Source: a virus. From it: a stretch of 64,000 nt of DNA. A program made the position numbers and the translations under genes. The notes under the pieces were generated by a model. That model made no database searches, was not told the DNA's origin, and saw nothing but the letters and a program-made list of their open reading frames with translations. Where the stretch lies: UHGV virus genome UHGV-0200554. One strand, written 5' to 3'. The stretch's first letter is position 1. The number at the start of each line of letters is the position of its first letter. Shown here in pieces: positions 1 through 52,134 of this stretch.

Positions 1-59
1 GGTTGACCCGCCAATCTCCCCTCCACAACTCTCCCAGTAATTTCCTTAAGTACTCGATC

Positions 60-230
60 TGTTTTTCAAAATCGAAATCGGATTCTGAAAATCTCGACAG
101 CTTTTCTCCTCGGTTCTCGATAGGTTTTTTATTTTCGATTTTGGATTCTGGATCTCGGTCTGGTTCTGGCTAGGCCTGCGCCTGAGGAACGAAAGCACTT
201 TTTTATTTTTGAAAGTGGATTTTGAATTTC
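60..230. repeat. Short-unit direct repeat tract (reiterated TCGAT / GATTCTGG units)
   Basis: Visible reiteration of aatcg, attctg(g), ctcg units over ~170 bp; ORF on minus strand here has no RBS. Confidence 0.3.
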
Positions 231-299
231 TATATAGAAAAAATTTACCCCCTACCATTTTTGGTAGATAGTCACGGTACGTAATTAGCCTGCTAACTA

Positions 300-500
300 A
301 ATTTTAGATAGTTTCATGAGTGATTATCACCGTTACTATAAATTGCCGTAACTATAAATCACCGTGCGTTACTATTTTAATTTCACCATGCAACTATAAA
401 TCACGGGCCGTTATTATTTATATAGAAAACTATTACTAACCGTGCGTTATTACCTCAATTTGCTTAGGTTACTATTAATCACCGTAAGTAACTATTTTTT
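300..500. repeat. Iteron cluster A: about 5 copies of AATCACCGTG..(A/T)ACTAT motif
   Basis: Copies near 325, 357, 399, 439, 477; related copies at 13831-13868. Confidence 0.5.
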
Positions 501-539
501 AAATGATAATCATTCTCAAAATATATTGCGTGCATCCCC

Positions 540-860
540 GGTGATTGTCTCCCGGCCCCTGGTGCCCCGGCTTGATTATATAATAACAGATCCGGCCCCC
601 ATGTCAACAGCTTTTTTAGAAAAATATTAGTTACAACATCCTGGCGCCACCTGGCAGGGCCATCATGACCATGATCCGGTCCGGCGCTTGCGCCCTGGTC
701 CATCCTCCGCACATTAGTTACAGCATTCCAACGACCGATCCCCGATAGTCTGCAACCTGGCGGGGCCGCCTGGTCCACTGGACCGCCTCCCCTGGTCCGG
801 TGGGGAGTCCGGCTTGCAATTCAAAATGTGATCTGTGTCAACCTTTCACCATGTAGCTAT
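540..860. other. GC-rich island with clustered CCTGG motifs
   Basis: Seven CCTGG within ~250 bp in an otherwise AT-rich genome; overlapping ORFs lack RBS. Confidence 0.35.
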
Positions 861-887
861 TGATCAGGTTACGGCCTAGTGTATTCT
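860..887 (+). promoter_or_regulatory. Putative sigma70 promoter (TTGATC / TATTCT)
   Basis: -35 ttgatc, -10 tattct; -10 and leader closely resemble promoter at 6496-6523. Confidence 0.4.
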
Positions 888-955
888 ATAGGTGAAGGGA
901 AACAAAGGGGAAACGGAAAGCAAAACACCAGGCCGCAAGGCAGGAGGAAAATAAA

Positions 956-1132
956 ATGAAAGGCATGGTTAACAACAACAACGTAAAAGAGAGGGAAATT
1001 ATTGTTAATGGTCGTGAGATTGACAATAAACGCCGGAAAGCTATGCGTGATGCCCTGGTCAACTGGTTGGATTATGAAAAAATGATGGTAATGGCAGCGG
1101 GTGCCGCAGCTGGTGAATTTAACCACAGATAA
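956..1132 (+). CDS. hypothetical protein (58 aa)
   Basis: ATG preceded by caggaggaaaataaa RBS; below the 60-aa ORF-track cutoff. Confidence 0.45.
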   Translation: MKGMVNNNNVKEREIIVNGREIDNKRRKAMRDALVNWLDYEKMMVMAAGAAAGEFNHR

Positions 1133-1148
1133 CCACAGGGGGGCAAAG

Positions 1149-1343
1149 GTGTTAGCTTATAATCTTCCAGGCCGTCGCCGTACGGTTGCCGACCAGGTAA
1201 CGGCAAAGGCAGACGTAACAATCAACAACGGGCAGGGCCTTTACAAGTTTAAACGGGGGAACAGCTATACGATCCAGTTTCTTAACCGTTGTGCTTTAAC
1301 ACCTGGTCAGATCAACCATTGGTTTAAAGCTAAAAAATTTTAA
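1149..1343 (+). CDS. hypothetical protein (about 64 aa, GTG start)
   Basis: ORF 1101..1343 trimmed to GTG after G-rich RBS; weak support. Confidence 0.3.
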   Translation: MLAYNLPGRRRTVADQVTAKADVTINNGQGLYKFKRGNSYTIQFLNRCALTPGQINHWFKAKKF

Positions 1344-1351
1344 AAAATTAG

Positions 1352-1380
1352 TTGACACCAGAAAGAAATAAAGTATTATA
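1352..1380 (+). promoter_or_regulatory. sigma70 promoter with upstream A-tract
   Basis: TTGACA, 16-17 bp spacer, TATTAT; A-rich UP-like tract upstream. Confidence 0.65.
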
Positions 1381-1428
1381 GATAGTGAAAGCAGTACACA
1401 AGGTTAACAAAATATAAGGAGTAACATC

Positions 1429-1830
1429 ATGAGCGCTTTTAACACTGATTTCGATTTCTCTGGTCTGGAAGAAGTTCGCGATCTTCGTAACTGCCGCCGC
1501 GAAAACGGTTTTTATAAATCTCTGGACCTGGTGGCACTGGACCACAAAATGGACCTGGAAGAAGTAGCAACGATTCGTTTCTACCAGTCACCGCGCGGTA
1601 ACACTGTTTACTGTGTAGTATGGGTACATGAAGCAGGGCACGAATTTTATGCCACTGCTGGCGGGAAAGCTGGTGGCTATGGTTACGATAAAGAGGAGGC
1701 CGCATTACGGGAAGCTATCGAGGCGATGGGTGTAAAAGCTGGCGATTATGCTCACCCTGAAAAATTTTTAATCCAGCTTGCTCGCTACTTCGGATATGAA
1801 AAAGCTAAAGTGATTGAAGCACACGCATAA
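1429..1830 (+). CDS. hypothetical protein (133 aa)
   Basis: RBS aaggag 8 nt upstream of ATG; promoter at 1352. Confidence 0.7.
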   Translation: MSAFNTDFDFSGLEEVRDLRNCRRENGFYKSLDLVALDHKMDLEEVATIRFYQSPRGNTVYCVVWVHEAGHEFYATAGGKAGGYGYDKEEAALREAIEAMGVKAGDYAHPEKFLIQLARYFGYEKAKVIEAHA

Positions 1831-1836
1831 GCTGCC

Positions 1837-1871
1837 TTTTAGATGGCCCCCTGGTGGGGCCATTGATAAAG
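1837..1871 (+). promoter_or_regulatory. Conserved palindromic intergenic element (TTTTAGATGGCC..GGCCAT..ATAAAG family)
   Basis: 8-bp perfect stem ATGGCCCC/GGGGCCAT; same module recurs at 3855, 4488, 4929, 7538. Confidence 0.45.
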
Positions 1872-1907
1872 GTAACTTGGGGCAACAATAACCGAGAGAA
1901 AGAAAAT

Positions 1908-2342
1908 ATGAAACGTTTACCACGCTGGATCCGCTTTATTAATAAACTTGCCGCAGATGAAAAAATCCAGGCTATGCATAAAGATAACCGCGAACGCCGT
2001 GCTGCCTTACGAGATTATCGCCGCATGTTGGCAAAGTTAGCCAATAAAAATGGCGTTCTTAAACCGTTCCGCAAAGTGATCCACCTGGTCGCTATGGGAG
2101 CGCCTAAGGTGGCAAACGTTCCAAACGTCCATAAGATTGATGACCGCGACGTTGTAAGAGATATTGATAAAGATTTTTCTCCGAAGGCCATCAATCAGCG
2201 GATCAACAGCTGCAAAAATAAGAAAGATCTTGATAATTTGTTAGATAGCCTCGACGCTTTAGGGTGTGATTATGATTTCTTAGATGACAAGATTAATAAA
2301 AAATACCGCGAATTGGCTGGTTATCGCGTCAACCGGATTTAA
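1908..2342 (+). CDS. hypothetical protein (144 aa)
   Basis: Track ORF 1854..2342 trimmed to ATG after gagagaaag RBS. Confidence 0.6.
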   Translation: MKRLPRWIRFINKLAADEKIQAMHKDNRERRAALRDYRRMLAKLANKNGVLKPFRKVIHLVAMGAPKVANVPNVHKIDDRDVVRDIDKDFSPKAINQRINSCKNKKDLDNLLDSLDALGCDYDFLDDKINKKYRELAGYRVNRI

Positions 2343-2629
2343 CATATCAGAATAGTTGGCCCTGGTGGATCCGATCCGTGCACGGTCCAGGGTATGCCCG
2401 AAAACCTCCCCCATTACGCCGCTACGCCTGTTTTGAAGGTGTGGCGGTGTAGTTGCACCTCTTTGCAAAACACCTCGCCATAATACTTATTTGATGCCTT
2501 ATTTTCGATACGCTCAAATAATGACCAATCAATCGCCCCCACCATGATTTTTTTCTTGCAATCCCCCAATGTATGAATACAATAACAATTGAAGGCAGTA
2601 TTAACAAAAACACAAGAAGGGGAAACAAA

Positions 2630-2800
2630 ATGGATAAAATCTATTACGTTGTTTATCGCGGCCTTAATGTTGCCTGGTACGACAATTTGGCTGAGGCAAT
2701 GGAAGAGGCGCACGACCGTTACGACCTGGGGCGTAACCGCCTTGAAGTGGTGGATAGCGACGGCGTGATCTATTGGTGTAGTGAGGATCTGGAATACTGA
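2630..2800 (+). CDS. hypothetical protein (56 aa)
   Basis: Track ORF 2573..2800 trimmed to internal ATG after aggggaaac RBS. Confidence 0.45.
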   Translation: MDKIYYVVYRGLNVAWYDNLAEAMEEAHDRYDLGRNRLEVVDSDGVIYWCSEDLEY

Positions 2801-2811
2801 AAAAAAAATAG

Positions 2812-2842
2812 TTGACACGACCGTTTGAAAGTGTAGTATATA
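2812..2842 (+). promoter_or_regulatory. sigma70 promoter with upstream A-tract
   Basis: TTGACA and gtagtatat extended -10-like region; A9 tract upstream. Confidence 0.6.
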
Positions 2843-2895
2843 AACCGAAGGGGAAAGAAATTTCCCAGAGGTAAAAAACAAAGAGGATAAAAATC

Positions 2896-3171
2896 ATGGC
2901 TATCATCGAAAAAGTAAACGTTCCAGCCACTTATAATAAAGGTTATAACGGTTGGAAAAATTACAATCAGTGGAACGTTGCACTGTGGATCAATAACGAC
3001 GAAAGTTTATACTTCTTTGCCCTGGGCTTGATTAATGAGTGTGGCAATAAAGACGCGGCAGCTGATTTGATGGTTTACCGCTTGAAAGAAGAGGGGATCA
3101 CTCATACGCCTGATGGGGTGCCTTACAATAAAACTAACATCCGCGCCGCTATGGTCGGAATGCCGCACTGA
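2896..3171 (+). CDS. hypothetical protein (91 aa)
   Basis: RBS aagaggat upstream of ATG. Confidence 0.7.
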   Translation: MAIIEKVNVPATYNKGYNGWKNYNQWNVALWINNDESLYFFALGLINECGNKDAAADLMVYRLKEEGITHTPDGVPYNKTNIRAAMVGMPH

Positions 3172-3247
3172 TAGCCGCCTTACCCTGGGGCCGTGGCAGC
3201 GCCCCATGAATAAGGTTACTACCCCCACAATAACAGGAGGTAACATT

Positions 3248-3358
3248 ATGAACATTATCGCGGCAATCATTGTAGGCTATGCCCTCTTTTTGCTGGGCTT
3301 GCACCTGGCGGCAGTTATCAAAGGCCTGATCGATTTCTTTAAAAAAGATGAAAAATAG
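3248..3358 (+). CDS. small hydrophobic membrane peptide (36 aa)
   Basis: RBS aggagg then ATG; single predicted TM (IIAAIIVGYALFLLGLHLAAVI). Confidence 0.4.
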   Translation: MNIIAAIIVGYALFLLGLHLAAVIKGLIDFFKKDEK

Positions 3359-3360
3359 TG

Positions 3361-3388
3361 TTGACAGGTGAGAGAAAATAAATATACT
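3361..3388 (+). promoter_or_regulatory. sigma70 promoter
   Basis: TTGACA, 16 bp spacer, TATACT. Confidence 0.65.
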
Positions 3389-3438
3389 TAACCATGAAAG
3401 CAGTAAACGAGATTAATAAAACACAGGAGAAAAAGATC

Positions 3439-3849
3439 ATGAAAACTACTTTCCGTAATGCAAATGGTTTAACTGCATTCGCTTTAGCTTGTGGATATGT
3501 TCAAATGGTAGAGGGGCGGGATCGTGAAATGGTGGATCTGTTTAAAGCCCACGGTTGCTACCATGTTCGCGCTTTTAATGCTGATGGCGAGCGGCAAGCA
3601 TGGTTTAGTGTGCCATCTTTAACTGATGCCCGTCGCCATTGGAAAGAACTGGTAAAACTGATTTTCGGTGCACGCATTGCACAAGTGAAACGCTGCAAAC
3701 GTTACGAAGTGCGCCACGTCCTGGACCTGAGAGGGGAGGCAGTTTACCAGGTTATCTATCGCTACGATGGGGAGTCTCGCCACGTCGGCTACTGTGAAAA
3801 CGTGGACGCGGCATGGATGATTGCACACCGCGACTATGTAAGCCTATAG
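3439..3849 (+). CDS. hypothetical protein (136 aa)
   Basis: Track ORF 3394..3849 trimmed to ATG after caggag RBS. Confidence 0.6.
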   Translation: MKTTFRNANGLTAFALACGYVQMVEGRDREMVDLFKAHGCYHVRAFNADGERQAWFSVPSLTDARRHWKELVKLIFGARIAQVKRCKRYEVRHVLDLRGEAVYQVIYRYDGESRHVGYCENVDAAWMIAHRDYVSL

Positions 3850-3854
3850 GTTAT

Positions 3855-3895
3855 TTTTCGGTGGCCTGGGTATTGACACCGGGCCATCTATAAAG
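3855..3895 (+). promoter_or_regulatory. Palindromic intergenic element with embedded TTGACA
   Basis: GGCC..TTGACA..GGCCATCTATAAAG; same family as 1837, 4488, 4929, 7538. Confidence 0.45.
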
Positions 3896-3933
3896 TAACC
3901 TAAAGATCCACACAACGAAGGGGGGGAACAATC

Positions 3934-4026
3934 ATGAAAAACTATTCTCACTATTTGATCCGTCGTGATGTTATGATTATGGCCCTGGGCTACCTGGTTA
4001 TGTTTGCTTTTCGTGTAATGCTGTAA
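3934..4026 (+). CDS. small hydrophobic peptide (30 aa)
   Basis: G-rich RBS then ATG; hydrophobic core; not in ORF track (short). Confidence 0.35.
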   Translation: MKNYSHYLIRRDVMIMALGYLVMFAFRVML

Positions 4027-4044
4027 AATAAATTAAAAAATTAG

Positions 4045-4072
4045 TTGACACAGTAGCAAAAATAAGTAAACT
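4045..4072 (+). promoter_or_regulatory. sigma70 promoter with upstream A-tract
   Basis: TTGACA, 16 bp spacer, TAAACT. Confidence 0.6.
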
Positions 4073-4117
4073 TAAAACTGAAAGAAGTAATTAGTAAACC
4101 ACAAAGAGGAAAACATC

Positions 4118-4477
4118 ATGAAACGCATCAATAAGGCTATGGCTAACGCAATCCGTGCTTATGTAGTTGACAGCTTAAACTTTGACGACATGGAACACGA
4201 CAACGACGTTGAGGAACTGAAAGCACGCTTTGAAGCTGAGCATTTTGACGGCTATTATATCCGTCGCTTTAACGGCAACCGTGTAAAAGCAATGGCCGAC
4301 TGGTTAGCAGGACTGCCGAGCGGTGTAGACATTGACTTCTGTAATGATGACATTTTAAACCGCTTGCGTGAGTTCGGAATCATTGACGAAAAAACTAAAG
4401 AAGACACTAAAGATCGCTACATTGACGAATGGTTTGAACTGATGGCGCGGTTTTATGTGGAACTAGCATACAAATAA
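4118..4477 (+). CDS. hypothetical protein (119 aa)
   Basis: RBS aagagga upstream of ATG. Confidence 0.7.
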   Translation: MKRINKAMANAIRAYVVDSLNFDDMEHDNDVEELKARFEAEHFDGYYIRRFNGNRVKAMADWLAGLPSGVDIDFCNDDILNRLREFGIIDEKTKEDTKDRYIDEWFELMARFYVELAYK

Positions 4478-4487
4478 AATAGCTTGC

Positions 4488-4545
4488 TTTTAGATGGCCT
4501 CGAAAAAAAAAAATAGTTGACACGGGGCCATCGATAAAGTAAACT
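4488..4545 (+). promoter_or_regulatory. Palindromic element split by promoter (TTGACA at 4517, TAAACT at 4540)
   Basis: ATGGCCTCG and CGGGGCCAT arms flank A11 tract and TTGACA; 17-bp spacer to TAAACT. Confidence 0.55.
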
Positions 4546-4583
4546 AACACACAGTAAGAAGTAACAACAAAGGAGAAAACATT

Positions 4584-4922
4584 ATGAACGCTAACATTGA
4601 ACTGATTGCACGTCGTGCCGCCCTGGTTGCAGCTATCGAACAATTGAACAATAAAATTGAAAACTTTGAAATTGATCCAGATGACTACGAAAACGACTAC
4701 GATGATTTACTAGACGAAGGCGGTGCGGTAGTGGTAGGCGGTTGCGAATTTCTCCCGTCTAGAATCCTCCGCGAACTGGATCCGATTGCTTATCGTTGCG
4801 GCCTGAATGATTATATAGACAACATTGATGTAAGCGATGACGCAAACTATTGTGATTTGTGTGACGATCTGGCTGACCTTGAGGCAGAACTAGGGGAAGT
4901 CGAGGAAGCGCTACGTAACTAA
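4584..4922 (+). CDS. highly acidic small protein (112 aa), DNA-mimic candidate
   Basis: RBS aaaggag; very high Asp/Glu content over most of the protein, few basic residues. Confidence 0.7.
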   Translation: MNANIELIARRAALVAAIEQLNNKIENFEIDPDDYENDYDDLLDEGGAVVVGGCEFLPSRILRELDPIAYRCGLNDYIDNIDVSDDANYCDLCDDLADLEAELGEVEEALRN

Positions 4923-4928
4923 GTTGCC

Positions 4929-4964
4929 TTTTAGATGGCCTCCCTGGCGGGGCCATCCATAAAG
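4929..4964 (+). promoter_or_regulatory. Conserved palindromic intergenic element
   Basis: TTTTAGATGGCCTCC..GGGGCCATCCATAAAG followed by GATAAT. Confidence 0.45.
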
Positions 4965-5001
4965 ATAATTTAGTGTAACCACAATAAAAAGGAGTTACGC
5001 A

Positions 5002-5250
5002 ATGGCAAAATTAATTAACTTTGCAGCGGTGGACCTGGTAAAAGCTGATTGGTATTATAGCAATGGTCGCGCCGTTTGGTGGCGTGAAGGGGGTGCCGAG
5101 GGCAAAGTAAAAGCGCGTATGATTAAAGGTTACCATTTAGATCGCCCTGTAATTCGTATCAATGGGAAGCTGGTCGCTTTCATGCATATCAAAGCGGTTG
5201 ACGATATTGAAAAAATTTTGAACGTCAACTATTTTAAAATGTTAGGGTGA
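5002..5250 (+). CDS. hypothetical protein (82 aa)
   Basis: RBS aaaggag upstream of ATG. Confidence 0.65.
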   Translation: MAKLINFAAVDLVKADWYYSNGRAVWWREGGAEGKVKARMIKGYHLDRPVIRINGKLVAFMHIKAVDDIEKILNVNYFKMLG

Positions 5251-5339
5251 CATGCCAGGCGGGGGCCGTTAGTCCGGCCCCCTCTATCCAACCAGGAGGA
5301 GGTGACACTATGCCCAGTTAACAACAGAGAGGAAAATAT

Positions 5340-5678
5340 ATGGACCTCATGACGTGCATACTCGCATTTATTGCAATAGGTGTAGTCTGGAACAAAGTAA
5401 AAAACCAGAGTTATTACGCCAGATGCCAGGCTTTTCGGGTGAATCCGTGGGATATTGATCCGGGTGCTGATTATGTTATCAAGTACCAGGACCGACACGG
5501 CAAACAATATGTAACGCCGTCGCCGATACCGGCCTATTGCTTGCTGGAATACACAGACAAGATAAAACAGGCAGGTTTTTTAATTGTTGACCTGTGGGGC
5601 CGCCACGGTGACGCGAAAAAATTTATTAAAGCAGTGGCTGCAAATATTGCAGCACAAGAAAACGACGATGAAGAGTAA
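5340..5678 (+). CDS. hypothetical membrane-anchored protein (112 aa)
   Basis: RBS agagagg; N-terminal hydrophobic segment. Confidence 0.65.
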   Translation: MDLMTCILAFIAIGVVWNKVKNQSYYARCQAFRVNPWDIDPGADYVIKYQDRHGKQYVTPSPIPAYCLLEYTDKIKQAGFLIVDLWGRHGDAKKFIKAVAANIAAQENDDEE

Positions 5679-5692
5679 CAGGAGCGCCGATT

Positions 5693-5914
5693 ATGAACAT
5701 GGTAAACTTTGAAAAAATTACTAAGCGCAATCATTTATCTGACGAACTACCGGAACGCCGCCAGCGTAACAACAAGCTGAATAAACCGCGTCGATTTGGT
5801 AAACTGTGGCGCAACTATTACGACCGTAATTTACGCCGCCTGTTACTTGAACGTGAACGCCAACAAATGAGATACGCAGCACGGCGGGAACGGATGAAAG
5901 CAGACGAAATTTAA
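5693..5914 (+). CDS. arginine-rich small protein (73 aa)
   Basis: RBS ggag; highly basic, Arg-rich, possibly nucleic-acid binding. Confidence 0.6.
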   Translation: MNMVNFEKITKRNHLSDELPERRQRNNKLNKPRRFGKLWRNYYDRNLRRLLLERERQQMRYAARRERMKADEI

Positions 5915-5919
5915 CCGAT

Positions 5920-5950
5920 AGGCCCCCAGGTGGGGGCCTTTCTTCATTTG
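5920..5950 (+). terminator. Intrinsic terminator
   Basis: AGGCCCCC-aggt-GGGGGCCT hairpin followed by T-rich tract. Confidence 0.6.
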
Positions 5951-6154
5951 TAACATAGCGCAATCAATTTTAAGGCCCTTAAAACGCCCTACAACGCAAA
6001 GAAGCCTAAAGGTGAACAATTGCATTACCCGCCCCCAATTAGTAATTTGTGATCAAGATCTCACAAAAATTAATAGGTAAAAACCTTATTTACTTCTTAT
6101 AGGATCTGCATACCATTTTAATTGAAAGAAGAAACACAGCAGGAGGAAAATAAA

Positions 6155-6364
6155 ATGGTCTACTGTGATTATGCCAATGATGCACTGGGCCGCTATGAGA
6201 AAGGCCGTTATTATGACCTGAGCGAAATAATTGATAACGAGGATTATTACATCGATAAGAATGATGATCATCTAGTCGTTATCCATCGCGTAGTCGATCC
6301 GATGTGCTTCGTGGACGTTAGCCCGATTGTGGCACGCTTTGAAATTATGGTATTGGAGGCTTGA
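6155..6364 (+). CDS. hypothetical protein (69 aa)
   Basis: Track ORF 6122..6364 trimmed to ATG after caggaggaaaataaa RBS. Confidence 0.6.
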   Translation: MVYCDYANDALGRYEKGRYYDLSEIIDNEDYYIDKNDDHLVVIHRVVDPMCFVDVSPIVARFEIMVLEA

Positions 6365-6366
6365 TT

Positions 6367-6474
6367 ATGTTACTTGAAATGCTGATGAATCCGATTATTT
6401 CTATGGGCCTGATCTTTGTAGTTGTCTGCCTGGTTGTTGGTTTTATCTTGAGCAATATGCGGAAGTAAAAATTT
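6367..6474 (+). CDS. small hydrophobic peptide (35 aa)
   Basis: ATG 2 nt after upstream stop; hydrophobic core. Confidence 0.35.
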
Positions 6475-6495
6475 TTAAAAAGCTATGAAAAAGTG

Positions 6496-6523
6496 TTGAC
6501 ACGGCCCCCCGGTTTGGTATTCT
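6496..6523 (+). promoter_or_regulatory. Putative sigma70 promoter
   Basis: TTGACA, 16 bp spacer, TATTCT; followed by purine-rich leader. Confidence 0.5.
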
Positions 6524-6670
6524 ATAGCTGAAAGGAAAAGAAAGGGAACAAGAAGGAAAGTTCCGGGAGCGGGAAAAGAAGGGTAAGGGAAAAGCCTTGA
6601 AGCATAGCTAACCGAAGGACCGAGGGAGCCGGGAGCGGCCCTAAAAGATACTCAAAGAAGTAAAAAGAAG

Positions 6671-6698
6671 TTGACAAGGTAACACAAAGCAGTAAAAT
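6671..6698 (+). promoter_or_regulatory. sigma70 promoter
   Basis: TTGACA, 16 bp spacer, TAAAAT. Confidence 0.6.
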
Positions 6699-6777
6699 AA
6701 AGTTGAAAGGGAAGGATGCAGGGAGCAACAAGGACCGGATAAACCGGGGGGAGCTGAAAGAAAACGAGGAAAATAAA

Positions 6778-6864
6778 ATGAAAGACTACTACAAAGCAAA
6801 CGAATATGAAAGGGTAGCAGATTTCATTAAAGAAATGTTAAAAGGTCTGAATAATAAAAAATGA
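6778..6864 (+). CDS. small protein (28 aa)
   Basis: ATG after acgaggaaaataaa RBS; below ORF-track cutoff. Confidence 0.3.
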   Translation: MKDYYKANEYERVADFIKEMLKGLNNKK

Positions 6865-6872
6865 GGTGGGGT

Positions 6873-6986
6873 ATGAAAAACAAGCAAGAAAGGCCCGAAG
6901 ATGACAAATTTACATGGCGTGAGCTTTTAAACATCTGGTACATCATTTACGGGCAACATTATAAACACAGAGGAGGGAGGTTATAA
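6873..6986 (+). CDS. small protein (37 aa)
   Basis: ATG after gaggtgggg RBS; followed by GGAGGGAGG..CCTCCC hairpin. Confidence 0.3.
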   Translation: MKNKQERPEDDKFTWRELLNIWYIIYGQHYKHRGGRL

Positions 6987-7033
6987 ACCTCCCACCACAA
7001 AGAAAGAAACAACAACCAAGCGAGGAAAATAAA

Positions 7034-7261
7034 ATGAGCAACGTTATCAAGTTCCCCATGAATCGTGTAAAACCATCTAAAGGTGTGGTTAATTTCGATA
7101 ATAAGGTTTACCGCATGGCCTGGATCGTTAGAAACAGCGACAATAAGGGCGATATCTGGGTAGAGGCATTCAGGCGGGAGGTTGATGCTATTTTTTCAAG
7201 AAGTGTAAGGGGAGGCCGGATCATTAGAGGATTTTTCAAAGCGGCACCGGAAGAGGTTTAA
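7034..7261 (+). CDS. hypothetical protein (75 aa)
   Basis: RBS gcgaggaaaataaa upstream of ATG. Confidence 0.6.
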   Translation: MSNVIKFPMNRVKPSKGVVNFDNKVYRMAWIVRNSDNKGDIWVEAFRREVDAIFSRSVRGGRIIRGFFKAAPEEV

Positions 7262-7266
7262 AAAGG

Positions 7267-7294
7267 TTGACAAATCATAAAAAACAAGTAGACT
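7267..7294 (+). promoter_or_regulatory. Putative sigma70 promoter
   Basis: TTGACA then TAGACT at 16 bp. Confidence 0.45.
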
Positions 7295-7336
7295 GATAAT
7301 CGAAAGCAGTAAACAATTTAAAAGGAGAACATAATC

Positions 7337-7531
7337 ATGAAACACATCAACATCGTAAACCTGAAAAAAGTTTGCAAAATTGCAATTTTTGTGGAAGGTG
7401 TCGAGGCTTATCGTTGCGACTACGAAGATTATAAAGATGCGTTAGCTTTCCTCCTGGACGTGGCACACCACAACAATCTAGACTATGAAGCCATCGAGGC
7501 AGCCGAAAAAGTTATGGCAATTGCCGCATGA
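7337..7531 (+). CDS. hypothetical protein (64 aa)
   Basis: RBS aaaggag upstream of ATG. Confidence 0.65.
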   Translation: MKHINIVNLKKVCKIAIFVEGVEAYRCDYEDYKDALAFLLDVAHHNNLDYEAIEAAEKVMAIAA

Positions 7532-7537
7532 GTTAGC

Positions 7538-7578
7538 TTTTAGATGGTCCACGATGCGAAAGTGGATCATCAATAAAG
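7538..7578 (+). promoter_or_regulatory. Conserved palindromic intergenic element
   Basis: TTTTAGATGGTCCAC..GTGGATCATCAATAAAG, degenerate copy of the family. Confidence 0.4.
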
Positions 7579-7612
7579 AAAACTCAACCACGAAGCAAGA
7601 AGGAGAAACATC

Positions 7613-7843
7613 ATGGACCTTATGACAGCTGTTGCAACATACGACTATAAAAACTTTTTTGATGTAGTCATGATTAAAAAACCAGCTAACGCCCGGATGC
7701 CTGCAAATGGTTACGGTAAAAAATTACCGACTAACTGGATGATCAATTTCGAGGGCCGTATGCGCCGCGTCTATGTTGATATCTGTGGCAATTCTGGACA
7801 CAGGTACATCATGGTTAAAGGCCGTAAATTTACTATCATGTAA
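7613..7843 (+). CDS. hypothetical protein (76 aa)
   Basis: RBS gaaggag upstream of ATG. Confidence 0.65.
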   Translation: MDLMTAVATYDYKNFFDVVMIKKPANARMPANGYGKKLPTNWMINFEGRMRRVYVDICGNSGHRYIMVKGRKFTIM

Positions 7844-7904
7844 CACGATTTCAACCAGGGCCGGAAGTCCGGCCCTATCATCAACCAACAAAGGGGATCA
7901 AAAA

Positions 7905-8024
7905 ATGAAAGACAAGCCTCGACCTTGCAGCGATACAATTTACCATCTGATAGCATGGTGTGAGATCCTGGCAATTGAAGCCCTTATGGGTGTTGGCATT
8001 TACTTTATAGCGATCTATAATTAA
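7905..8024 (+). CDS. small hydrophobic peptide (39 aa)
   Basis: Track ORF 7773..8024 trimmed to ATG after aaagggga RBS; C-terminal TM. Confidence 0.4.
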   Translation: MKDKPRPCSDTIYHLIAWCEILAIEALMGVGIYFIAIYN

Positions 8025-8057
8025 CGCGAAAGGAAATAGCCATGAGGAATAAAAGCA

Positions 8058-8414
8058 ATGAGAATCATCGACCTGTTAAACCGTATGCCGGACGTCAACG
8101 AGATGGCCCCCGATATGAACGAAATTGATCGAGAAGCTGCCGAAAAAGCGGCCCGTAAAATTAAATGCCGTGGGGCCGCTATCGGTGCGGTGCTTTTTGG
8201 CCTTGCTTATGCTCATATTGATTTGGTCCATAACATTTTCCACAATGCACCGATCAAAATCGTGTTAGCCTGGATTGTCTGCTACGTGTGCGGTGAGTAC
8301 ATTTACCCGGTTGCCAAAAAATTGGCCCCGTGGGCCGTCCTGGGTGCGGTGATCTATTATGTTGCGCCTGTGATTATTGCAATCGTAAAACATTACACAG
8401 CGCAACAAATGTAA
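8058..8414 (+). CDS. hypothetical membrane protein (118 aa)
   Basis: RBS aggaat; two or more hydrophobic segments. Confidence 0.65.
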   Translation: MRIIDLLNRMPDVNEMAPDMNEIDREAAEKAARKIKCRGAAIGAVLFGLAYAHIDLVHNIFHNAPIKIVLAWIVCYVCGEYIYPVAKKLAPWAVLGAVIYYVAPVIIAIVKHYTAQQM

Positions 8415-8424
8415 GAGATTCTAA

Positions 8425-8450
8425 GGGCCGCAAATAAGCGGCCTTTTTTA
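8425..8450 (+). terminator. Intrinsic terminator
   Basis: GGGCCGC-aaataa-GCGGCC hairpin followed by TTTTTTA. Confidence 0.75.
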
Positions 8451-8753
8451 TGGCCCCGCCTCCTGTGTTTAAAATCCTTCCTGTAAGCCCCGCCATTGAG
8501 ATTTACCCGCAAGATAAGCAAGTGTAAAGCCCCACCATTCCAGGCCGTTGCAGGCCCTGCCAGGTGCCTAAAAATCGATTTATACGCTTCCACTATTGCC
8601 AACCTTCAAAGCGATCCAGACTTAAAAGTGTTGCCCCTGCAAAATGAGAATAGTTATCATCTTATAAATTTTTCTTGCAATGTGGTCTGTTGTGTGTATA
8701 CTTATTCTTGAAAGGGGAATACCTCCCCCACCAACAACAAAGGAGTTAAAATT

Positions 8754-9035
8754 ATGTTCCCTAACCTATTCCCTGGTGCGGTTATCAATTTTGAAGCCCG
8801 TTATTTGCAAGCTGGTATGATTATCATTCGAAATGATCGCCCATTGAAATTAACTAGGGTAGAATACAATGAAGGCCAGGCCCCTGGCGAGGAAACTGTA
8901 GACTACTTCTTCATGTATGCAGATGAGGATCCAAATGATAACACTGGCGAATGGTTTAACTTCTTCCTGCCGGACGAAATGATTAAAGTGCTTTATTATC
9001 CTGGTAACCGTTATCCGCTTCATGCGCTTTTCTAA
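8754..9035 (+). CDS. hypothetical protein (93 aa)
   Basis: RBS aaaggag upstream of ATG. Confidence 0.65.
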   Translation: MFPNLFPGAVINFEARYLQAGMIIIRNDRPLKLTRVEYNEGQAPGEETVDYFFMYADEDPNDNTGEWFNFFLPDEMIKVLYYPGNRYPLHALF

Positions 9036-9050
9036 AAAAAATCTTCATAA

Positions 9051-9076
9051 AGGCTTGCAATGTGCAGGCCTTTTTC
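9051..9076 (+). terminator. Putative intrinsic terminator
   Basis: AGGCTTGCA..GCAGGCCT imperfect hairpin followed by TTTTT. Confidence 0.5.
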
Positions 9077-9130
9077 CTACTATAAAGGTGAAGAAAGAAG
9101 TAAGGCCAACAGTTAGAGGAGTAACAAATT

Positions 9131-9340
9131 ATGGGCATGGGAAGAGATAAACGTAAAGCGGCGAAAGCAAGAAAAGCGGCAGCAAAGGCCGCACCTGTTA
9201 AAGCTGTACCGTACCACGTCAATATAAACAACCTGGAAGTAATGAACAATCCGGCCCCTATGGAAGAATTTAACGATGCGGATTGGAGGGCGGTAGCAAG
9301 AATGGTTATCCGGCTTGAACGCCTTGCCAGGGAAGAGTAA
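9131..9340 (+). CDS. hypothetical basic protein (69 aa)
   Basis: RBS agaggag; Lys/Ala-rich N-terminus. Confidence 0.6.
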   Translation: MGMGRDKRKAAKARKAAAKAAPVKAVPYHVNINNLEVMNNPAPMEEFNDADWRAVARMVIRLERLAREE

Positions 9341-9361
9341 AAAAGTTAGAAAAAAAAACGG

Positions 9362-9390
9362 TTGACACAGAATAGAGAAGGCCTATAATT
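9362..9390 (+). promoter_or_regulatory. sigma70 promoter (consensus)
   Basis: TTGACA, 17 bp spacer, TATAAT. Confidence 0.75.
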
Positions 9391-9439
9391 AAAGTGAAAG
9401 AAGTAATTAGAAACAACAAAATAAGAAGAGGTAAGTATC

Positions 9440-9706
9440 ATGAAAATGGTAGACGTTAAAGGCATCAAGAACGTTAAAATGCAAAAAAATACTCCCGCAA
9501 ACGTTCTTAAAAAAGCCCTGAGCATCCTAGAAGCACACAACGCAAAAACGGTGCATCCTGTTAAATTAAATTGCGGTTATGGCTATAAATACAATATTAA
9601 TAAAGACTGGAGGCTGTTAAACCGTGATGGCGAATTTAAAGATTGGTTAATTGTTGAGCACTTGGAGTATAATCGTCTGGTTGGCGTAAAAGGCGCTCAT
9701 AAATAA
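9440..9706 (+). CDS. hypothetical protein (88 aa)
   Basis: RBS aagaagagg upstream of ATG. Confidence 0.65.
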   Translation: MKMVDVKGIKNVKMQKNTPANVLKKALSILEAHNAKTVHPVKLNCGYGYKYNINKDWRLLNRDGEFKDWLIVEHLEYNRLVGVKGAHK

Positions 9707-9751
9707 CGCCAGAACATGAAAACACAGCATAAAACACTAAGAGGGAACGCC

Positions 9752-9931
9752 ATGATTAGAGAATCCCAAATACTTTACGAAAATGGCAACTACTGGATCC
9801 TTGAGGCTAAACCGGGGGTTTACCAGGTGATGGTAAAAGGTTTAACGCATTCGACTTGCGATAGCGCCTACGCAGATTTTGATCTAGCATTGGCCCGGTG
9901 TGAGTACCTGGCACGAAGAGAAAACGCATAA
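9752..9931 (+). CDS. hypothetical protein (59 aa)
   Basis: Track ORF 9716..9931 trimmed to ATG after agaggga RBS. Confidence 0.45.
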   Translation: MIRESQILYENGNYWILEAKPGVYQVMVKGLTHSTCDSAYADFDLALARCEYLARRENA

Positions 9932-9986
9932 AAGAAAGGCCCCACCCAGGGGCCTTAACTTTATGAAAAAAAATCTGAAAAAATAG

Positions 9987-10014
9987 TTGACACCTTGCTG
10001 GGATAGTATATTAT
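9987..10014 (+). promoter_or_regulatory. sigma70 promoter with upstream A-tract
   Basis: TTGACA, 16 bp spacer, TATTAT. Confidence 0.6.
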
Positions 10015-10057
10015 TAAATTGAAAGCAGTACTAAACCACTTGAAAGAGGAAAAGATC

Positions 10058-10540
10058 ATGAAAGCGTTCAAATATGTTTTAGCGGCCCTGGCGATGGTTA
10101 TCGGTGTAAATGTGAATGCTGGCGGTTTTAGAGTCGAGGCCCCCGAGCATATCAATCCGGTTTATGTGAAAGAAATTTTAATGAATTGCGCCGGGGAAAT
10201 GGTTGCACCTGATGCGGTGTTTAATCCTGATGCACCGATCAACGTTAAAAAAGGTTGGCTGGCTAAAGCTGACAAAGAATGTAAAACATTGGTAAATAAT
10301 GTTATCGTTCACGCCCTGATTGTTGACCTGATTATCAAGAAAGGCCCTGAAAATATGAAGGGCATGGACGAAGAGGAGTTTAAAGAGTATTTCTATAACG
10401 AAGAAATGAAAGTGGAGAATTACCATTTTGATGAAAACGGTTATGAAGATGTTAAAGCTAACTTGAAAGATGTTTACAATCTTGCGCTTGAAAATCCTAA
10501 AGCCGCCCATGCTATCAAGGTGCGAATGATGGGAAAATAA
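10058..10540 (+). CDS. secreted/periplasmic protein with signal peptide (160 aa)
   Basis: Track ORF trimmed to ATG after aagagga RBS; N-terminal signal-peptide-like segment. Confidence 0.6.
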   Translation: MKAFKYVLAALAMVIGVNVNAGGFRVEAPEHINPVYVKEILMNCAGEMVAPDAVFNPDAPINVKKGWLAKADKECKTLVNNVIVHALIVDLIIKKGPENMKGMDEEEFKEYFYNEEMKVENYHFDENGYEDVKANLKDVYNLALENPKAAHAIKVRMMGK

Positions 10541-10545
10541 AAGTA

Positions 10546-10573
10546 TTGACAAGCTGCCAGGTTGTTGTAAGAT
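10546..10573 (+). promoter_or_regulatory. Putative sigma70 promoter
   Basis: TTGACA then TAAGAT at 16 bp. Confidence 0.45.
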
Positions 10574-10617
10574 GTAAATAAAAGAAGTACCACACCAAAT
10601 AAGAGGAGTACCAAATC

Positions 10618-10797
10618 ATGAAACGGAATATTAAAAAGGTCAACAACCTGGTAAATGTTGCAATGCGTGAACGTGAAAATGCTCTAGACCTTCTCCCCGA
10701 TGACGATATCGATGAGGAGGTGGCAGAAAAAGCCGTCTACCTGGCTAAAAACCTTGAGAATTTCGACATGCACGAACTGTTAAAAATGGCCCTGTAA
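10618..10797 (+). CDS. hypothetical protein (59 aa)
   Basis: RBS aagaggag then ATG; below ORF-track cutoff. Confidence 0.5.
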   Translation: MKRNIKKVNNLVNVAMRERENALDLLPDDDIDEEVAEKAVYLAKNLENFDMHELLKMAL

Positions 10798-10849
10798 GGC
10801 GGGGCCGATACCCCGCCAGCTATCCACCAAATCGAAAGGAGTGATTATT

Positions 10850-11146
10850 ATGTTTATCCCTGCAAACGGTTTATTCTTCTTTGACGGTATGATCGACAAT
10901 GCCGCCGTAATGGTCGAGATTGCCAACAAAAACGGCGGCCAGGTGATGGCATTCCGTGATGACCATGACCATGATCGATGGTTAGAGGTCGAGATCCAAA
11001 AAGTGGACGAAAAAAGCTATCTAGTGATCTACCGCCTCTTTGAAGACGGTCGCCAGGAGGCAGGGGATCAGGCCATCTTCCCGCGCTACATGGTCCAGGG
11101 TGCGATCATCGCTTTCGTGAACGATGTTTTCCCTGTTGAAGAATAA
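10850..11146 (+). CDS. hypothetical protein (98 aa)
   Basis: RBS aaaggag; ATG at 10850 preferred over GTG at 10841. Confidence 0.6.
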   Translation: MFIPANGLFFFDGMIDNAAVMVEIANKNGGQVMAFRDDHDHDRWLEVEIQKVDEKSYLVIYRLFEDGRQEAGDQAIFPRYMVQGAIIAFVNDVFPVEE

Positions 11147-11216
11147 CCGACTATACTCGAAAGCTGAAAATCAAAAAATAGCCCATCTAATCGCCACACA
11201 GGCGGGATAAACCTGG

Positions 11217-11249
11217 GGAGGCCTTGCAAGTGCATAGCCTCCTTTTTCA
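11217..11249 (+). terminator. Intrinsic terminator
   Basis: GGAGGC..GCCTCC hairpin followed by TTTTT. Confidence 0.6.
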
Positions 11250-11353
11250 TGCCCTTAAAACGCTTCCTGTTGCGTTTCCTGCGATACGGTCCAGGCCGTG
11301 ACGGCGGTCCGGTCCGGTGTAGGGTGTTCAAATGTTGTAACTAAAAATAATCC

Positions 11354-11381
11354 TTGCACCGATTCACAAATAGGCTATAAT
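11354..11381 (+). promoter_or_regulatory. sigma70 promoter
   Basis: TTGCAC, 16 bp spacer, TATAAT. Confidence 0.6.
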
Positions 11382-11425
11382 AAAAATGAAAGAGGTAATT
11401 ACCTCACATAATAAGGGGCAAAATC

Positions 11426-11683
11426 ATGAAAGGCTGGATTAAAAAGGTGACCGAAAAACGTTTTAACGCCATTTGGGATCTTATTGAAAAGGAAGAAGGT
11501 GCCTCAAGCCGCTACCTCAATAATCTTGAATTTCATTACGTGGAAGCGATGAATGCAGAACATGACCACAAAGGCGGCGCGGATGATTTTGCAAAAAGGT
11601 ACGGTTTTAATAATGCCAACGAGATGATCGAGGCGGTTGTACTCCAGGCAGAAGAAGACTACGCAGAAAGGGCGCTTGGTTAA
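11426..11683 (+). CDS. hypothetical protein (85 aa)
   Basis: RBS aagggg upstream of ATG. Confidence 0.65.
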   Translation: MKGWIKKVTEKRFNAIWDLIEKEEGASSRYLNNLEFHYVEAMNAEHDHKGGADDFAKRYGFNNANEMIEAVVLQAEEDYAERALG

Positions 11684-11726
11684 TACACGGGCCGAAAGGC
11701 CCACCACACAAAGAGGAGTAAAAATT

Positions 11727-11921
11727 ATGGCACTTAAAAAATTAACTGAAAAAACTCGTTGGGATATGATCGACGGGGAAGTCTATATTTTCGCCCGTAA
11801 ACCTGGCGATCAAAAATGGGTAAAAGCGTTCACTTGTCACCCTGCTGTTATTGACCTCATTAAAAGTAAAGGCCTACGTGAAGCAGTGGCACGTAGTCTA
11901 TTAATCCCTTGCAAAGAATAA
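11727..11921 (+). CDS. hypothetical protein (64 aa)
   Basis: Track ORF 11637..11921 trimmed to ATG after aagaggag RBS. Confidence 0.6.
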   Translation: MALKKLTEKTRWDMIDGEVYIFARKPGDQKWVKAFTCHPAVIDLIKSKGLREAVARSLLIPCKE

Positions 11922-11943
11922 TATAACTGACGAAATAATAAGA

Positions 11944-11967
11944 GGCCGCAAATAAGCGGCCTTTTTG
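11944..11967 (+). terminator. Intrinsic terminator (end of rightward small-gene block)
   Basis: GGCCGC-aaataa-GCGGCC hairpin followed by TTTTTGTT; near-identical to 8425 terminator. Confidence 0.75.
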
Positions 11968-12469
11968 TTGTCTGTAGTATAGTGAATCCGGTATTCAAAA
12001 CAGCGGATCATTCCGCGAACGCTATGCGTGATGTGTGCATAAAATAAAATGCCTATAAATTAACCACACCACAAAAAAGCTGTATGTGCATACATAGTTT
12101 TTAAGTTTTTTCAGTTTTCAGCTGTCAAATGTGGGGCATTTTGTGAAGTATCTCACACTTTTCGGCTGATGCACATTTTATATAGCTATGTCAACAACTA
12201 TAAATCTTTATAAAACAGTAAGTTACAAAGTCCATTTTTTGAAAAATCGGGTATAACTATAGGCGCGAAATTCTATTTTTCACGTAGCGTCACGATAAGA
12301 TGTATCTGATAGGTATGTTTTAATTATGCAATATTAATGCATAACCAACATGTGATAAATATTCTCAACAACCCGGCAGATGTATTAAATATGGTGACTA
12401 TTCCACCCCACATTATTTCAGACGGCAACTATTCCGATGTGTGATTAATATACTTTCAGGCGGTGATTA

Positions 12470-15371: not shown

Positions 15372-15599
15372 CTACTCCGTATCGATATCTACCTCTGTGC
15401 CTTCCTCAGGTACAGATAACATAGCCATCTGTAGAGCTTCCTCCCAGTTAGTGCGCTCAGCCTGAGCCACCAACTCATCCGGGTCTTTACCCAATGCTTC
15501 AGCTAACCGAGATACATAGAGTACACCAGGGAGAAGTTCAGGATCAAATTCAAGATAGAGAATCCCATCCCCATCTTCTGTGAAAAGCTCAAGTCGCAT
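15372..15599 (-). CDS. hypothetical acidic protein (75 aa); last gene of leftward block
   Basis: ORF from track, acidic composition. Confidence 0.45.
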   Translation of the reverse strand: MRLELFTEDGDGILYLEFDPELLPGVLYVSRLAEALGKDPDELVAQAERTNWEEALQMAMLSVPEEGTEVDIDTE

Positions 15600-18537: not shown

Positions 18538-18810
18538 CTATTCAACGATTTCGTAGCAATCACTGCAAACAATCATCGGGTCTGCTTCGAAGCCAGGGAT
18601 ATTTTCAAGAACGACCGCTTGGTTAAGAGTCAGCATAACCAGGAGAATACCAACATCTTCTTCTGCAACACCTAAGCTAAGCAGTTCTTCTTTATTCGGG
18701 TAGTGTGCATCAAGCACAGCACCTTCTTTGATCATACCAGACGCTTCAACCATTCCTTTCATGTCACTAGGCATCATGCAGTCTTCAACTTTAGTCAGGC
18801 GAATTTTCAT
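18538..18810 (-). CDS. small acidic protein, paralog family member (90 aa)
   Basis: N-term MKIRL, C-term CYEIVE; paralogous to 18810, 19279, 24896 ORFs. Confidence 0.55.
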   Translation of the reverse strand: MKIRLTKVEDCMMPSDMKGMVEASGMIKEGAVLDAHYPNKEELLSLGVAEEDVGILLVMLTLNQAVVLENIPGFEADPMIVCSDCYEIVE

Positions 18811-19103
18811 TATTCGTCCTCCTCTTCTTCAACAACATCCCAGAAATCACCAGGGATAGCCAGACCTTTATCTTCATCACCGTTTGGGAAAATGAAAACA
18901 ACCCCTTCGAGGATCATCATCAGAGTGACCTGCTGTAATGCATCTTCACCAGGATCAGGATCTCCGTGAGAAGTGATCTCTTTCAACACATCTGCCGGAC
19001 TTGGGACAAATGCATCATGAATTTCACCATCTTTGATACCGAAGATTTTTGCTGTTTCTTCGTCTACACCTTTAAGCACTACTTTAAAATCTGGTTGACG
19101 CAT
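18810..19103 (-). CDS. small acidic protein, paralog family member (97 aa)
   Basis: C-term FWDVVEEEEDE; shares core with 18538 and 19279 ORFs. Confidence 0.55.
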   Translation of the reverse strand: MRQPDFKVVLKGVDEETAKIFGIKDGEIHDAFVPSPADVLKEITSHGDPDPGEDALQQVTLMMILEGVVFIFPNGDEDKGLAIPGDFWDVVEEEEDE

Positions 19104-19278: not shown

Positions 19279-19551
19279 TTACTCCTCAACTACCTCGTAG
19301 TTTTCAGGTAAAACAATCAGGTTTTCACCACTACCCGGGGCATCAAAAGTAGCCATACCTTCCGGCAGGTGCAGTTCAACCAAAGTGAGCAGAGCTTCAC
19401 GTTCAGCTTCGCCCATACCTTCGAAAGTTTCGTCACCTAGGGCATCGCGAGCTACATCTTCCGGTGTAGGAATTTTAGCTTCTACGATCATACCTTCAGT
19501 CAGGCCGTGGATTGGATCAGCGATTTCAGTGTTCAGTAATTTAATTTTCAT
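19279..19551 (-). CDS. small acidic protein, paralog family member (90 aa)
   Basis: N-term MKIKL, C-term NYEVVEE. Confidence 0.55.
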   Translation of the reverse strand: MKIKLLNTEIADPIHGLTEGMIVEAKIPTPEDVARDALGDETFEGMGEAEREALLTLVELHLPEGMATFDAPGSGENLIVLPENYEVVEE

Positions 19552-22245: not shown

Positions 22246-22553
22246 TAGCGTCTACCTCTACCTTTTCTTTTTACTGCTTTCTTAGGTTTCTCAGCTTCAT
22301 CGTCTGCATTAAACATCTGCATGAGATGTGCCTGAGAATTCTTACCAAGGCCGGGTTTCTTCAAAGGATTATCATGTTCTTCAATGTCAATCTCTACTGA
22401 CTCAACCTCTCCGACCTTGTATGGCAATTCTAACAGAAGTTTACCATCCTTGTCAAATGTTTTTATAATAATTGTTTTCCCTTTTTCTTCTACCTCATAA
22501 CGGACACCCGCCGTATAGAAAAGTGTACCGTCATTATGATGGATCCACAGCAT
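22245..22553 (-). CDS. hypothetical protein (102 aa)
   Basis: ORF; basic C-terminal tail. Confidence 0.5.
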   Translation of the reverse strand: MLWIHHNDGTLFYTAGVRYEVEEKGKTIIIKTFDKDGKLLLELPYKVGEVESVEIDIEEHDNPLKKPGLGKNSQAHLMQMFNADDEAEKPKKAVKRKGRGRR

Positions 22554-22737
22554 CGCCTTCCTCCTTCAACATCTGGTGGTAGATATCCATAATGGCATCG
22601 TATGCAACATCAAAACCTTGCTGACGCAGCATATCTTCCAGAGGAGACTCCATTGTTGGGTTGTAGTGACGAGCTACGATATCCCGATCCAGTTCGTCAA
22701 AAATGCGTTGGAATACCTCAAATTGCTCTTTTGTCAT
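22534..22737 (-). CDS. hypothetical protein (67 aa)
   Basis: ORF in leftward block. Confidence 0.45.
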   Translation of the reverse strand: MTKEQFEVFQRIFDELDRDIVARHYNPTMESPLEDMLRQQGFDVAYDAIMDIYHQMLKEEGDAVDPS

Positions 22738-52058: not shown

Positions 52059-52134
52059 GCCCCGTTAGTTCAAATGGAAGAACAGTGGCCTTCTAAGCCA
52101 TAGGTTACAGGTTCGAGTCCTGTACGGGGTGCCA
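52059..52134 (+). tRNA. tRNA-Arg (anticodon UCU)
   Basis: Hand-folded cloverleaf: 7-bp acceptor, GTTC/GAAC D-stem, anticodon loop CTTCTAA, T-loop TTCGAGT, encoded CCA. Confidence 0.85.

Follow-up and report, generated by a model that had tools for sequence, protein, structure and literature searches.

The question raised by this locus is what a very acidic protein of 112 amino acids does for the phage that encodes it and, in particular, whether it is a DNA mimic, as the original prediction proposed from its composition. Small acidic early proteins are a classic phage way of blinding DNA-targeting defences and, to our knowledge, each mimic characterised so far has proved active against several systems and has set off back-up defences. 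The EVADES database lists 11 DNA mimics, and about a dozen have been characterised. The gene lies within a cluster of small early genes in the genome UHGV-0200554, the whole 64,000-nucleotide stretch of which is called the window here. The window belongs to an uncultured relative of the rV5-like (Vequintavirinae) coliphages; it is 72-77% identical to Vequintavirus genomes in the replication genes only, and no match to the locus turned up when 50,697 phage records were searched by megablast. Neighbouring genes match PHROGs without assigned function, and a single tRNA-Arg gene (anticodon TCT) is found on the plus strand at 52059-52134.

The gene (4584..4922, plus strand; ATG start, TAA stop included) encodes a member of PHROG 9294 that contains 17 Asp and 13 Glu, that is, 30 acidic residues (27%), and only six Arg, one Lys and no His. 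Computed net charge is −23 and pI is ~3.5, making this the second most acidic of 134 non-overlapping open reading frames of the window by net charge per residue (z = −2.7). These figures, 30 Asp/Glu against 7 Lys/Arg, bear out the claim of a very high acidic content with hardly any basic residues, and the two peptides cited for it, DDYENDYDDLLDEGG and DVSDDANYCDLCDDLADLEAELGEVEEA, indeed correspond to residues 33-47 and 82-109. The claim that the protein is acidic through most of its length calls for a qualification. The charge is uneven along the chain and is concentrated in two stretches (residues 26-45 and 76-110), whereas residues 1-25 and 46-65 are roughly neutral. Four other small acidic open reading frames, all on the minus strand, are equally plausible DNA-mimic candidates: 15372-15599 (net −16 in 75 residues), 18810-19103 (net −18 in 97 residues) and 19279-19551 (net −16 in 90 residues), each nearly as acidic as the protein and matching a PHROG without function, and 22534-22737 (net −10 in 67 residues), which matches no PHROG or Pfam family.

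Upstream of the gene is a sigma-70-type promoter-like site (4517..4545, plus strand; TTGACA, a 17-nt spacer and TAAACT) with 10 of 12 matches in a consensus scan, preceded by an A-tract (4505-4515, plus strand). A ribosome-binding site, AAGGAG (4571..4576, plus strand), can be read off the sequence 7-8 nt 5′ of the ATG. About 12 similar plus-strand promoter-like sites are spread over 1350-10570, and the scan as a whole returned 43 such sites versus 22.9±5.0 in shuffled sequences. The A-tract with TTGACAC occurs as a cassette in six copies within positions 1-12000 (repeat family D4), and the context from ribosome-binding site to start codon recurs at adjacent genes (families D2, D3 and D7). The gene had been described as promoter-proximal and early; the promoter-like site, the ribosome-binding site and the repeated cassettes agree with this, the early timing being judged solely from consensus matches. 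On that consensus, early transcription of the gene by the host RNA polymerase is probable.

The promoter-like site overlaps an inverted-repeat stem, CUUUU-AGAUGGCCUC ... GGGGCCAUC-AUAAAG (4484..4540, plus strand), which carries within its 20-nt loop the A-tract and the −35 box of the promoter. It has a predicted RNA fold of −22.2 kcal/mol (z = −6.6 versus shuffles), its arms recur elsewhere in the early region (families D5 and D14), and from its sequence we assign it as a predicted promoter-in-stem-loop cassette. A short-loop copy of the same stem, TAGATGGCCTC-CCTGGC-GGGGCCATC (4932..4957, plus strand), begins 10 nt past the stop codon and has no T-run behind it. A pattern search for it gave one match versus 0 expected, the fold of 4925-4966 is −17.3 kcal/mol (z = −2.05), and a terminator scan did not call this stem as a terminator. 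We noted that the intergenic stem, TTTTAGATGGCC ... GGGGCCATCnATAAAG, is repeated after stop codons (1828-1872, 3879-3895, 4479-4540, 4920-4964, 7529-7552 and 8435-8458), with a short loop at 4925-4966 and 1833-1872. Promoter-early-stem-loop cassettes have been described for T4-type phages, and the stem repeated here, resembling them, could mediate modular shuffling of early genes. Short direct repeats are also present near the start of the window, one set of three 32-nt copies at 63-74 nt spacing (62-230) and one of four 28-nt copies (AACTATAAATCACCGTGCGTTACTATTT-like) at 36-42 nt spacing (350-497); these may represent iterons, an origin or an array with a regulatory role, upstream of the early gene cluster.

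The acidity of the protein is not due to chance, because it is kept across its family: among 187 relatives the net charge is −27 at the median, with an Asp/Glu content of 30%, and certain exposed columns of the family alignment are 60-90% acidic. The match to PHROG 9294 (E = 2.9e-28) places residues 16-109 on profile positions 25-118 of 127, and the central part of the protein also matches PHROG 37123 and PHROG 9396; all three are phage families without an assigned function in any member. By tblastn, a homologue was present in 132 phage records, mostly rV5-like, with ~55-61% identity over residues 20-84. A word-indexed search returned 39 close relatives, and the exhaustive comparison of a profile with 1.84 billion cluster representatives gave 3,182 at E <= 0.001, including 918 at E <= 1e-10; the family thus comprises, as a lower bound, at least 3,182 clusters at 50% identity.

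The family occurs in phages of very different hosts and environments and is essentially confined to phage genomes. A tblastn search of 72,556 plasmids gave one match, to CP057073.1, a non-mobilizable 137.6-kb E. coli record of phage-genome size, and a scan of 185,579 bacterial and archaeal species genomes with one strict pattern of limited sensitivity gave two contigs only, both from metagenome-assembled genomes. About 17-20 'Campylobacter phage' records (MG0656xx, for example A14x; 128-143 kb) share their homologue with E. coli rV5-like phages and also match the replication genes of the window. These records and the plasmid CP057073.1 are probably mislabelled rV5-like phage genomes. Some GenBank members, such as those of Proteus phage RS8pmA (L003, 3367-3582) and Escherichia phage JLBYU08 (H15), are named 'phosphonoacetylaldehyde hydrolase'. 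We rejected this name, as an acidic protein of 71 or 116 residues cannot be that enzyme, and it looks like a propagated mis-annotation; 'SbcCD ATPase subunit' and 'chromosome segregation ATPase', also found on members, look like propagated or coiled-coil artefacts.

When the protein and its relatives were scanned against Pfam, NCBIfam and PADLOC, chance or coiled-coil noise and no family came up, and the matches to LmuB, JetC, Rad50 and SMC arms were rejected as compositional. A second large protein search, with the profile of the conserved domain described below, found only hypothetical proteins and automated coiled-coil names. A literature search found no study of this acidic family; Silas et al., in their accessory-gene screen, make no mention of rV5-like phages. 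The family is, then, already catalogued as PHROG 9294 but without a function or a Pfam entry, and its fold matches no solved structure.

The AlphaFold2 model of the protein is confident (pLDDT 94.4, pTM 0.75) and predicts a conserved alpha/beta head of ~55 residues on an intramolecular antiparallel two-helix coiled coil. According to DSSP on the model, the N-terminal helix (residues 3-26; 4590..4661, plus strand), about neutral and Ala-rich in the clade, would form the first strand of the coiled coil, and the C-terminal helix (residues 87-111; 4842..4916, plus strand), with Asp or Glu at nearly all non-core positions, the second. Between them lies the head (residues 27-86; 4662..4841, plus strand), made up of an acidic helix (32-46), a beta-hairpin (49-56) and two further helices (58-65 and 67-79); modelled alone (residues 27-88), it adopted the same fold, at pLDDT 88.5. 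The exposed positions of the stalk are nearly all Asp/Glu in the model. Heptad a/d positions 7, 11, 14, 18, 21, 25 and 28 of the N-terminal helix are hydrophobic and conserved in the family, and so are hydrophobic a/d positions 89, 92, 96, 99, 103, 106 and 110 found in the C-terminal helix, the other columns of which are 55-80% acidic across the family.

The head carries the motif L43-D44-E45 ... P58-S59 ... L62 ... D66-P67-x-A69-Y70-R71-C72-G73-L74-x-D76-Y77-x-D79 (in short, LDE...PS..L..DP.AYRCG..DY.D). Its residues D44, D66, P67, A69, Y70, R71, C72, G73 and D76 are invariant in close relatives and 75-98% kept across 155 diverse members. Four cysteines are present in the clade of the window protein, Cys54 (4743-4745), Cys72 (4797-4799), Cys90 (4851-4853) and Cys93 (4860-4862). 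Cys72 alone is widely kept (81%), and the CDLC (CxxC) of the C-terminal helix is missing from most of the family; from the sequences, a metal site or disulfide specific to this clade is possible.

In shape alone the protein resembles prefoldin beta subunits, the Rad50 zinc hook and SMC coiled-coil apices. Foldseek against the PDB gave prefoldin as its best match (E = 1.4; prefoldin matches at E = 1.4-5.3, TM 0.24-0.46), and these non-significant matches share the helix/beta-hairpin/helix layout of the protein. We rejected a prefoldin fold, as E exceeded 1 and TM was below 0.5. A PDB sequence search with the family profile found only coiled-coil proteins at E > 0.1.

How close is the protein, then, to the mimics with which it was compared? 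T7 Ocr (gp0.3) is a DNA-mimic inhibitor of type I restriction-modification (RM), BREX and RNA polymerase; we take its family to be Pfam PF08684 and its structure to be PDB 1S7Z, an elongated helical monomer that pairs into a homodimer with carboxylates placed like the phosphates, and following the shape, of bent B-DNA. ArdA, presumably PF07275, is ~166 residues long. T7 Ocr counts 34 acidic residues and 6 basic ones among its 116 amino acids (PMC4872106). The protein and Ocr are alike in length (~115 residues), Asp/Glu content (~27-29%), scarcity of basic residues, pI (<4) and mostly helical structure (PMC4872106). A homologue of Ocr is encoded by the phiKMV-like Proteus phage 309 (L002, 3796-4140; 114 residues, net −23; motif AVPHYY..IFSVMAS.GIDLEF), and its charge and size are matched by the 112-residue protein. 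The Ocr gene is among the first read from host promoters; by its strong consensus promoter and the repeated promoter cassettes, our gene may be as well. With ArdA the protein shares a high acidity and, probably, expression early after entry into a new cell. In contrast, ArdA is longer than the 112-residue protein and belongs to conjugative elements, whereas the present family is absent from the plasmids searched.

These likenesses do not extend to descent. The original prediction saw no sequence identity to a known mimic, and this holds: a Pfam scan at E <= 10 gave three chance-level matches, neither to Ocr nor to ArdA, hhalign of the family profile with the Ocr homologue of Proteus phage 309 gave a probability of 0.4%, and the PDB sequence search was also without such a match. 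Comparison of structures with known DNA mimics went against the proposal, as the model, though confident, matched neither the Ocr fold, the ArdA fold nor any other solved DNA mimic above noise. Ocr is a helical bundle, whereas the protein is predicted to have a beta-hairpin-containing head on a two-helix stalk. The protein is unrelated to the Ocr and ArdA families. Of the reading as an Ocr/ArdA-type mimic, the Ocr-like size, the charge and the probable early expression remain, and the relation by family or fold and an occurrence on plasmids do not. Moreover, Proteus phage 309 encodes a head-only member of the family together with its true Ocr, suggesting that the two are probably not redundant.

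The rV5-like phages of the BASEL collection carry the family, and their published plating data bear on a role against type I restriction. DrSchubert (Bas50), an rV5-like phage with the homologue bas50_0107 and with 10 EcoKI and 4 EcoCFT_I sites, all unmodified, plates with an efficiency (EOP) of 0.08-1.08 on EcoKI and 0.6-1.08 on EcoCFT_I (PMC8594841, S1 Data and S5 Table), against ~5e-4 on EcoRI and values at or below detection on EcoRV and EcoCFT_II (PMC8594841). Bas51 and Bas52 plate like it (PMC8594841). The rV5-like carriers, which have 10-17 unmodified EcoKI sites and nevertheless plate with an EOP of 0.1-1 on type I RM, must therefore encode some means of type I evasion. However, the phi92-like PaulScherrer, with 12 EcoKI sites, has an EOP of 0.72 (PMC8594841), and no family member was found in bases 1-148,999 of its 150,425 (99% of the genome), so that type I escape does not track the family gene. 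The authors of the collection called Vequintavirinae 'exceptionally susceptible' to RM and judged them to be without effective RM protection (PMC8594841). We dropped this wording as evidence against an anti-restriction role, since in the raw data it is type II and III systems, not type I, to which these phages are susceptible.

The plating data show the same escape more widely: the large myoviruses Bas50-52 and Bas60-63 (rV5-, phi92- and Felix O1-like), with 9-17 unmodified EcoKI sites, have EOPs of 0.1-1.4 on type I RM (PMC8594841). Weak type I effects were attributed to rare sites (PMC8594841). However, the EOP of the siphovirus Bas01, which has just 3 EcoKI sites, falls to ~1e-4 (PMC8594841), and, since many-site myoviruses escape while a three-site siphovirus is restricted 10^4-fold, some evasion mechanism seems to exist. 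The window itself has 4 EcoKI sites versus 7.8±2.7 expected, a depletion that is not significant.

The family is modular. The head occurs without the stalk in 71-residue proteins of phiKMV-like Proteus phages (net −11, counted by hand), whose gene precedes those for primase and helicase in the early region and is 1.1 kb upstream of the true Ocr homologue. It also occurs in tandem copies (P0115 and P0159). One relative, P0082, is fused to Kyano_Gp96 (PF23790, mildly basic), the acidic part having a net charge of −40 and the Gp96 part of +9, and another, P0187, is fused to DUF7222. In 4 of 71 diverse IMG/VR loci a same-strand Kyano_Gp96 gene is no more than ~1 kb away, and in one locus the same holds for a DUF7222 gene. 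The links to these two families, both without function, are thus recurrent but rare (P0082 and P0187; loci L013, L050, L056 and L071). In the window, a local profile search of the whole sequence found no Kyano_Gp96, and a scan of 19 window proteins was likewise negative for DUF7222. Across the 71 loci there was no conserved neighbour, the commonest cluster occurring in just 6, and a Pfam scan of 105 flanking proteins gave scattered matches only. The lack of a conserved neighbour fits a self-sufficient, host-directed factor.

Our best guess, to which we give a probability of about 40%, is that the protein inhibits, as a stand-alone polyanion, a protein that binds nucleic acids. It would act alone shortly after infection, binding one to one to a positively charged nucleic-acid-binding surface on a protein of the host or of a competing element. 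Once bound, it would compete with DNA or RNA and would thus be a nucleic-acid mimic in a broad functional sense; the head may provide specificity and the acidic stalk electrostatic affinity. Binding, mimicry and target are what we infer, and the target need not be a restriction enzyme. The composition equals that of Ocr, and the charge appears to be selected, as acidic columns are kept through exchange of Asp and Glu and the buried heptad positions stay hydrophobic. The confident models of the whole protein and of the head, the strong host-type promoter-like site among many small early genes, the short relative in the Proteus early region, the phage-confined distribution, the absence of a conserved neighbour and the type I evasion of rV5-like carriers all argue in the same direction. 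On the other side are the lack of homology or fold likeness to solved mimics, the coexistence with a true Ocr and the existence of other acidic window proteins that are equally good candidates. The type I evasion is as good in PaulScherrer, and the BASEL authors judged RM protection ineffective. The conserved DP.AYRCG..DY.D motif, too, is more suggestive of a specific protein contact or of a structural core than of generic phosphate mimicry. The same motif is the main argument for a host-takeover factor, in which the head would bind one conserved bacterial protein and the acidity would serve solubility or stalk stability and not mimicry. The near-invariance of the motif residues, and the existence of the head without a stalk and in tandem, which points to the head as the minimal unit, agree with this, and the occurrence of the family in phages with such varied hosts and environments hints at a target that is universally conserved. 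We consider such a factor rather unlikely, as even the stalkless head is strongly acidic, the stalk columns stay acidic, which is hard to explain were charge irrelevant, and the conserved polar residues could equally form a buried structural network.

The more specific reading originally proposed, an Ocr-like role against type I restriction, is improbable in our view. Size, charge and early position are Ocr-like, the rV5-like carriers escape EcoKI and EcoCFT_I yet suffer heavy restriction from type II and III systems, and the EcoKI sites of the window are not significantly depleted. However, the protein is unrelated to Ocr and ArdA by sequence and fold, PaulScherrer escapes with no family member in the 99% of its genome searched, a Proteus phage keeps a family member alongside its true Ocr, and conjugative plasmids, a common home of type I inhibitors, lack the family. 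A role within the phage, serving a basic phage protein (for example Kyano_Gp96-like or DUF7222) as its acidic partner, chaperone or regulator, or acting as a prefoldin-like assembly chaperone, seems similarly doubtful. The two fusions, the near neighbours in a few loci and the layout shared with prefoldin subunits, the best Foldseek matches though not significant, are consistent with it. Against it, the association is seen in only ~6% of loci, the window has no detected copy of either partner within the searches made, the prefoldin matches are below significance, and the gene sits among early and not morphogenesis genes. That the open reading frame is a chance or compositional artefact has a negligible probability, being refuted by the conservation of the family (thousands of homologues under purifying selection), by the promoter-like site and ribosome-binding site and by the confident predicted fold: it is a real gene.

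In a bolder reading, the family would be a new structural class of DNA mimics, an acidic coiled-coil stalk with a small conserved head, disarming type I RM, BREX or another DNA-binding defence in thousands of virulent phage lineages. We regard this reading as unlikely; if true, it would explain why rV5-like phages, with their 10-17 unmodified sites, escape EcoKI and EcoCFT_I. At present the protein is well described, with a putative role as an inhibitor. The family, large, phage-specific and confidently modelled, is present in tractable BASEL rV5-like phages (bas50_0107), which makes it a cheap and well-defined candidate for anti-defence screening. Were the protein a mimic, the DNA-mimic class would gain a new fold, and a widespread counter-defence gene would be identified; were it instead a specific binder of a host protein, it would reveal a conserved target of phage takeover.
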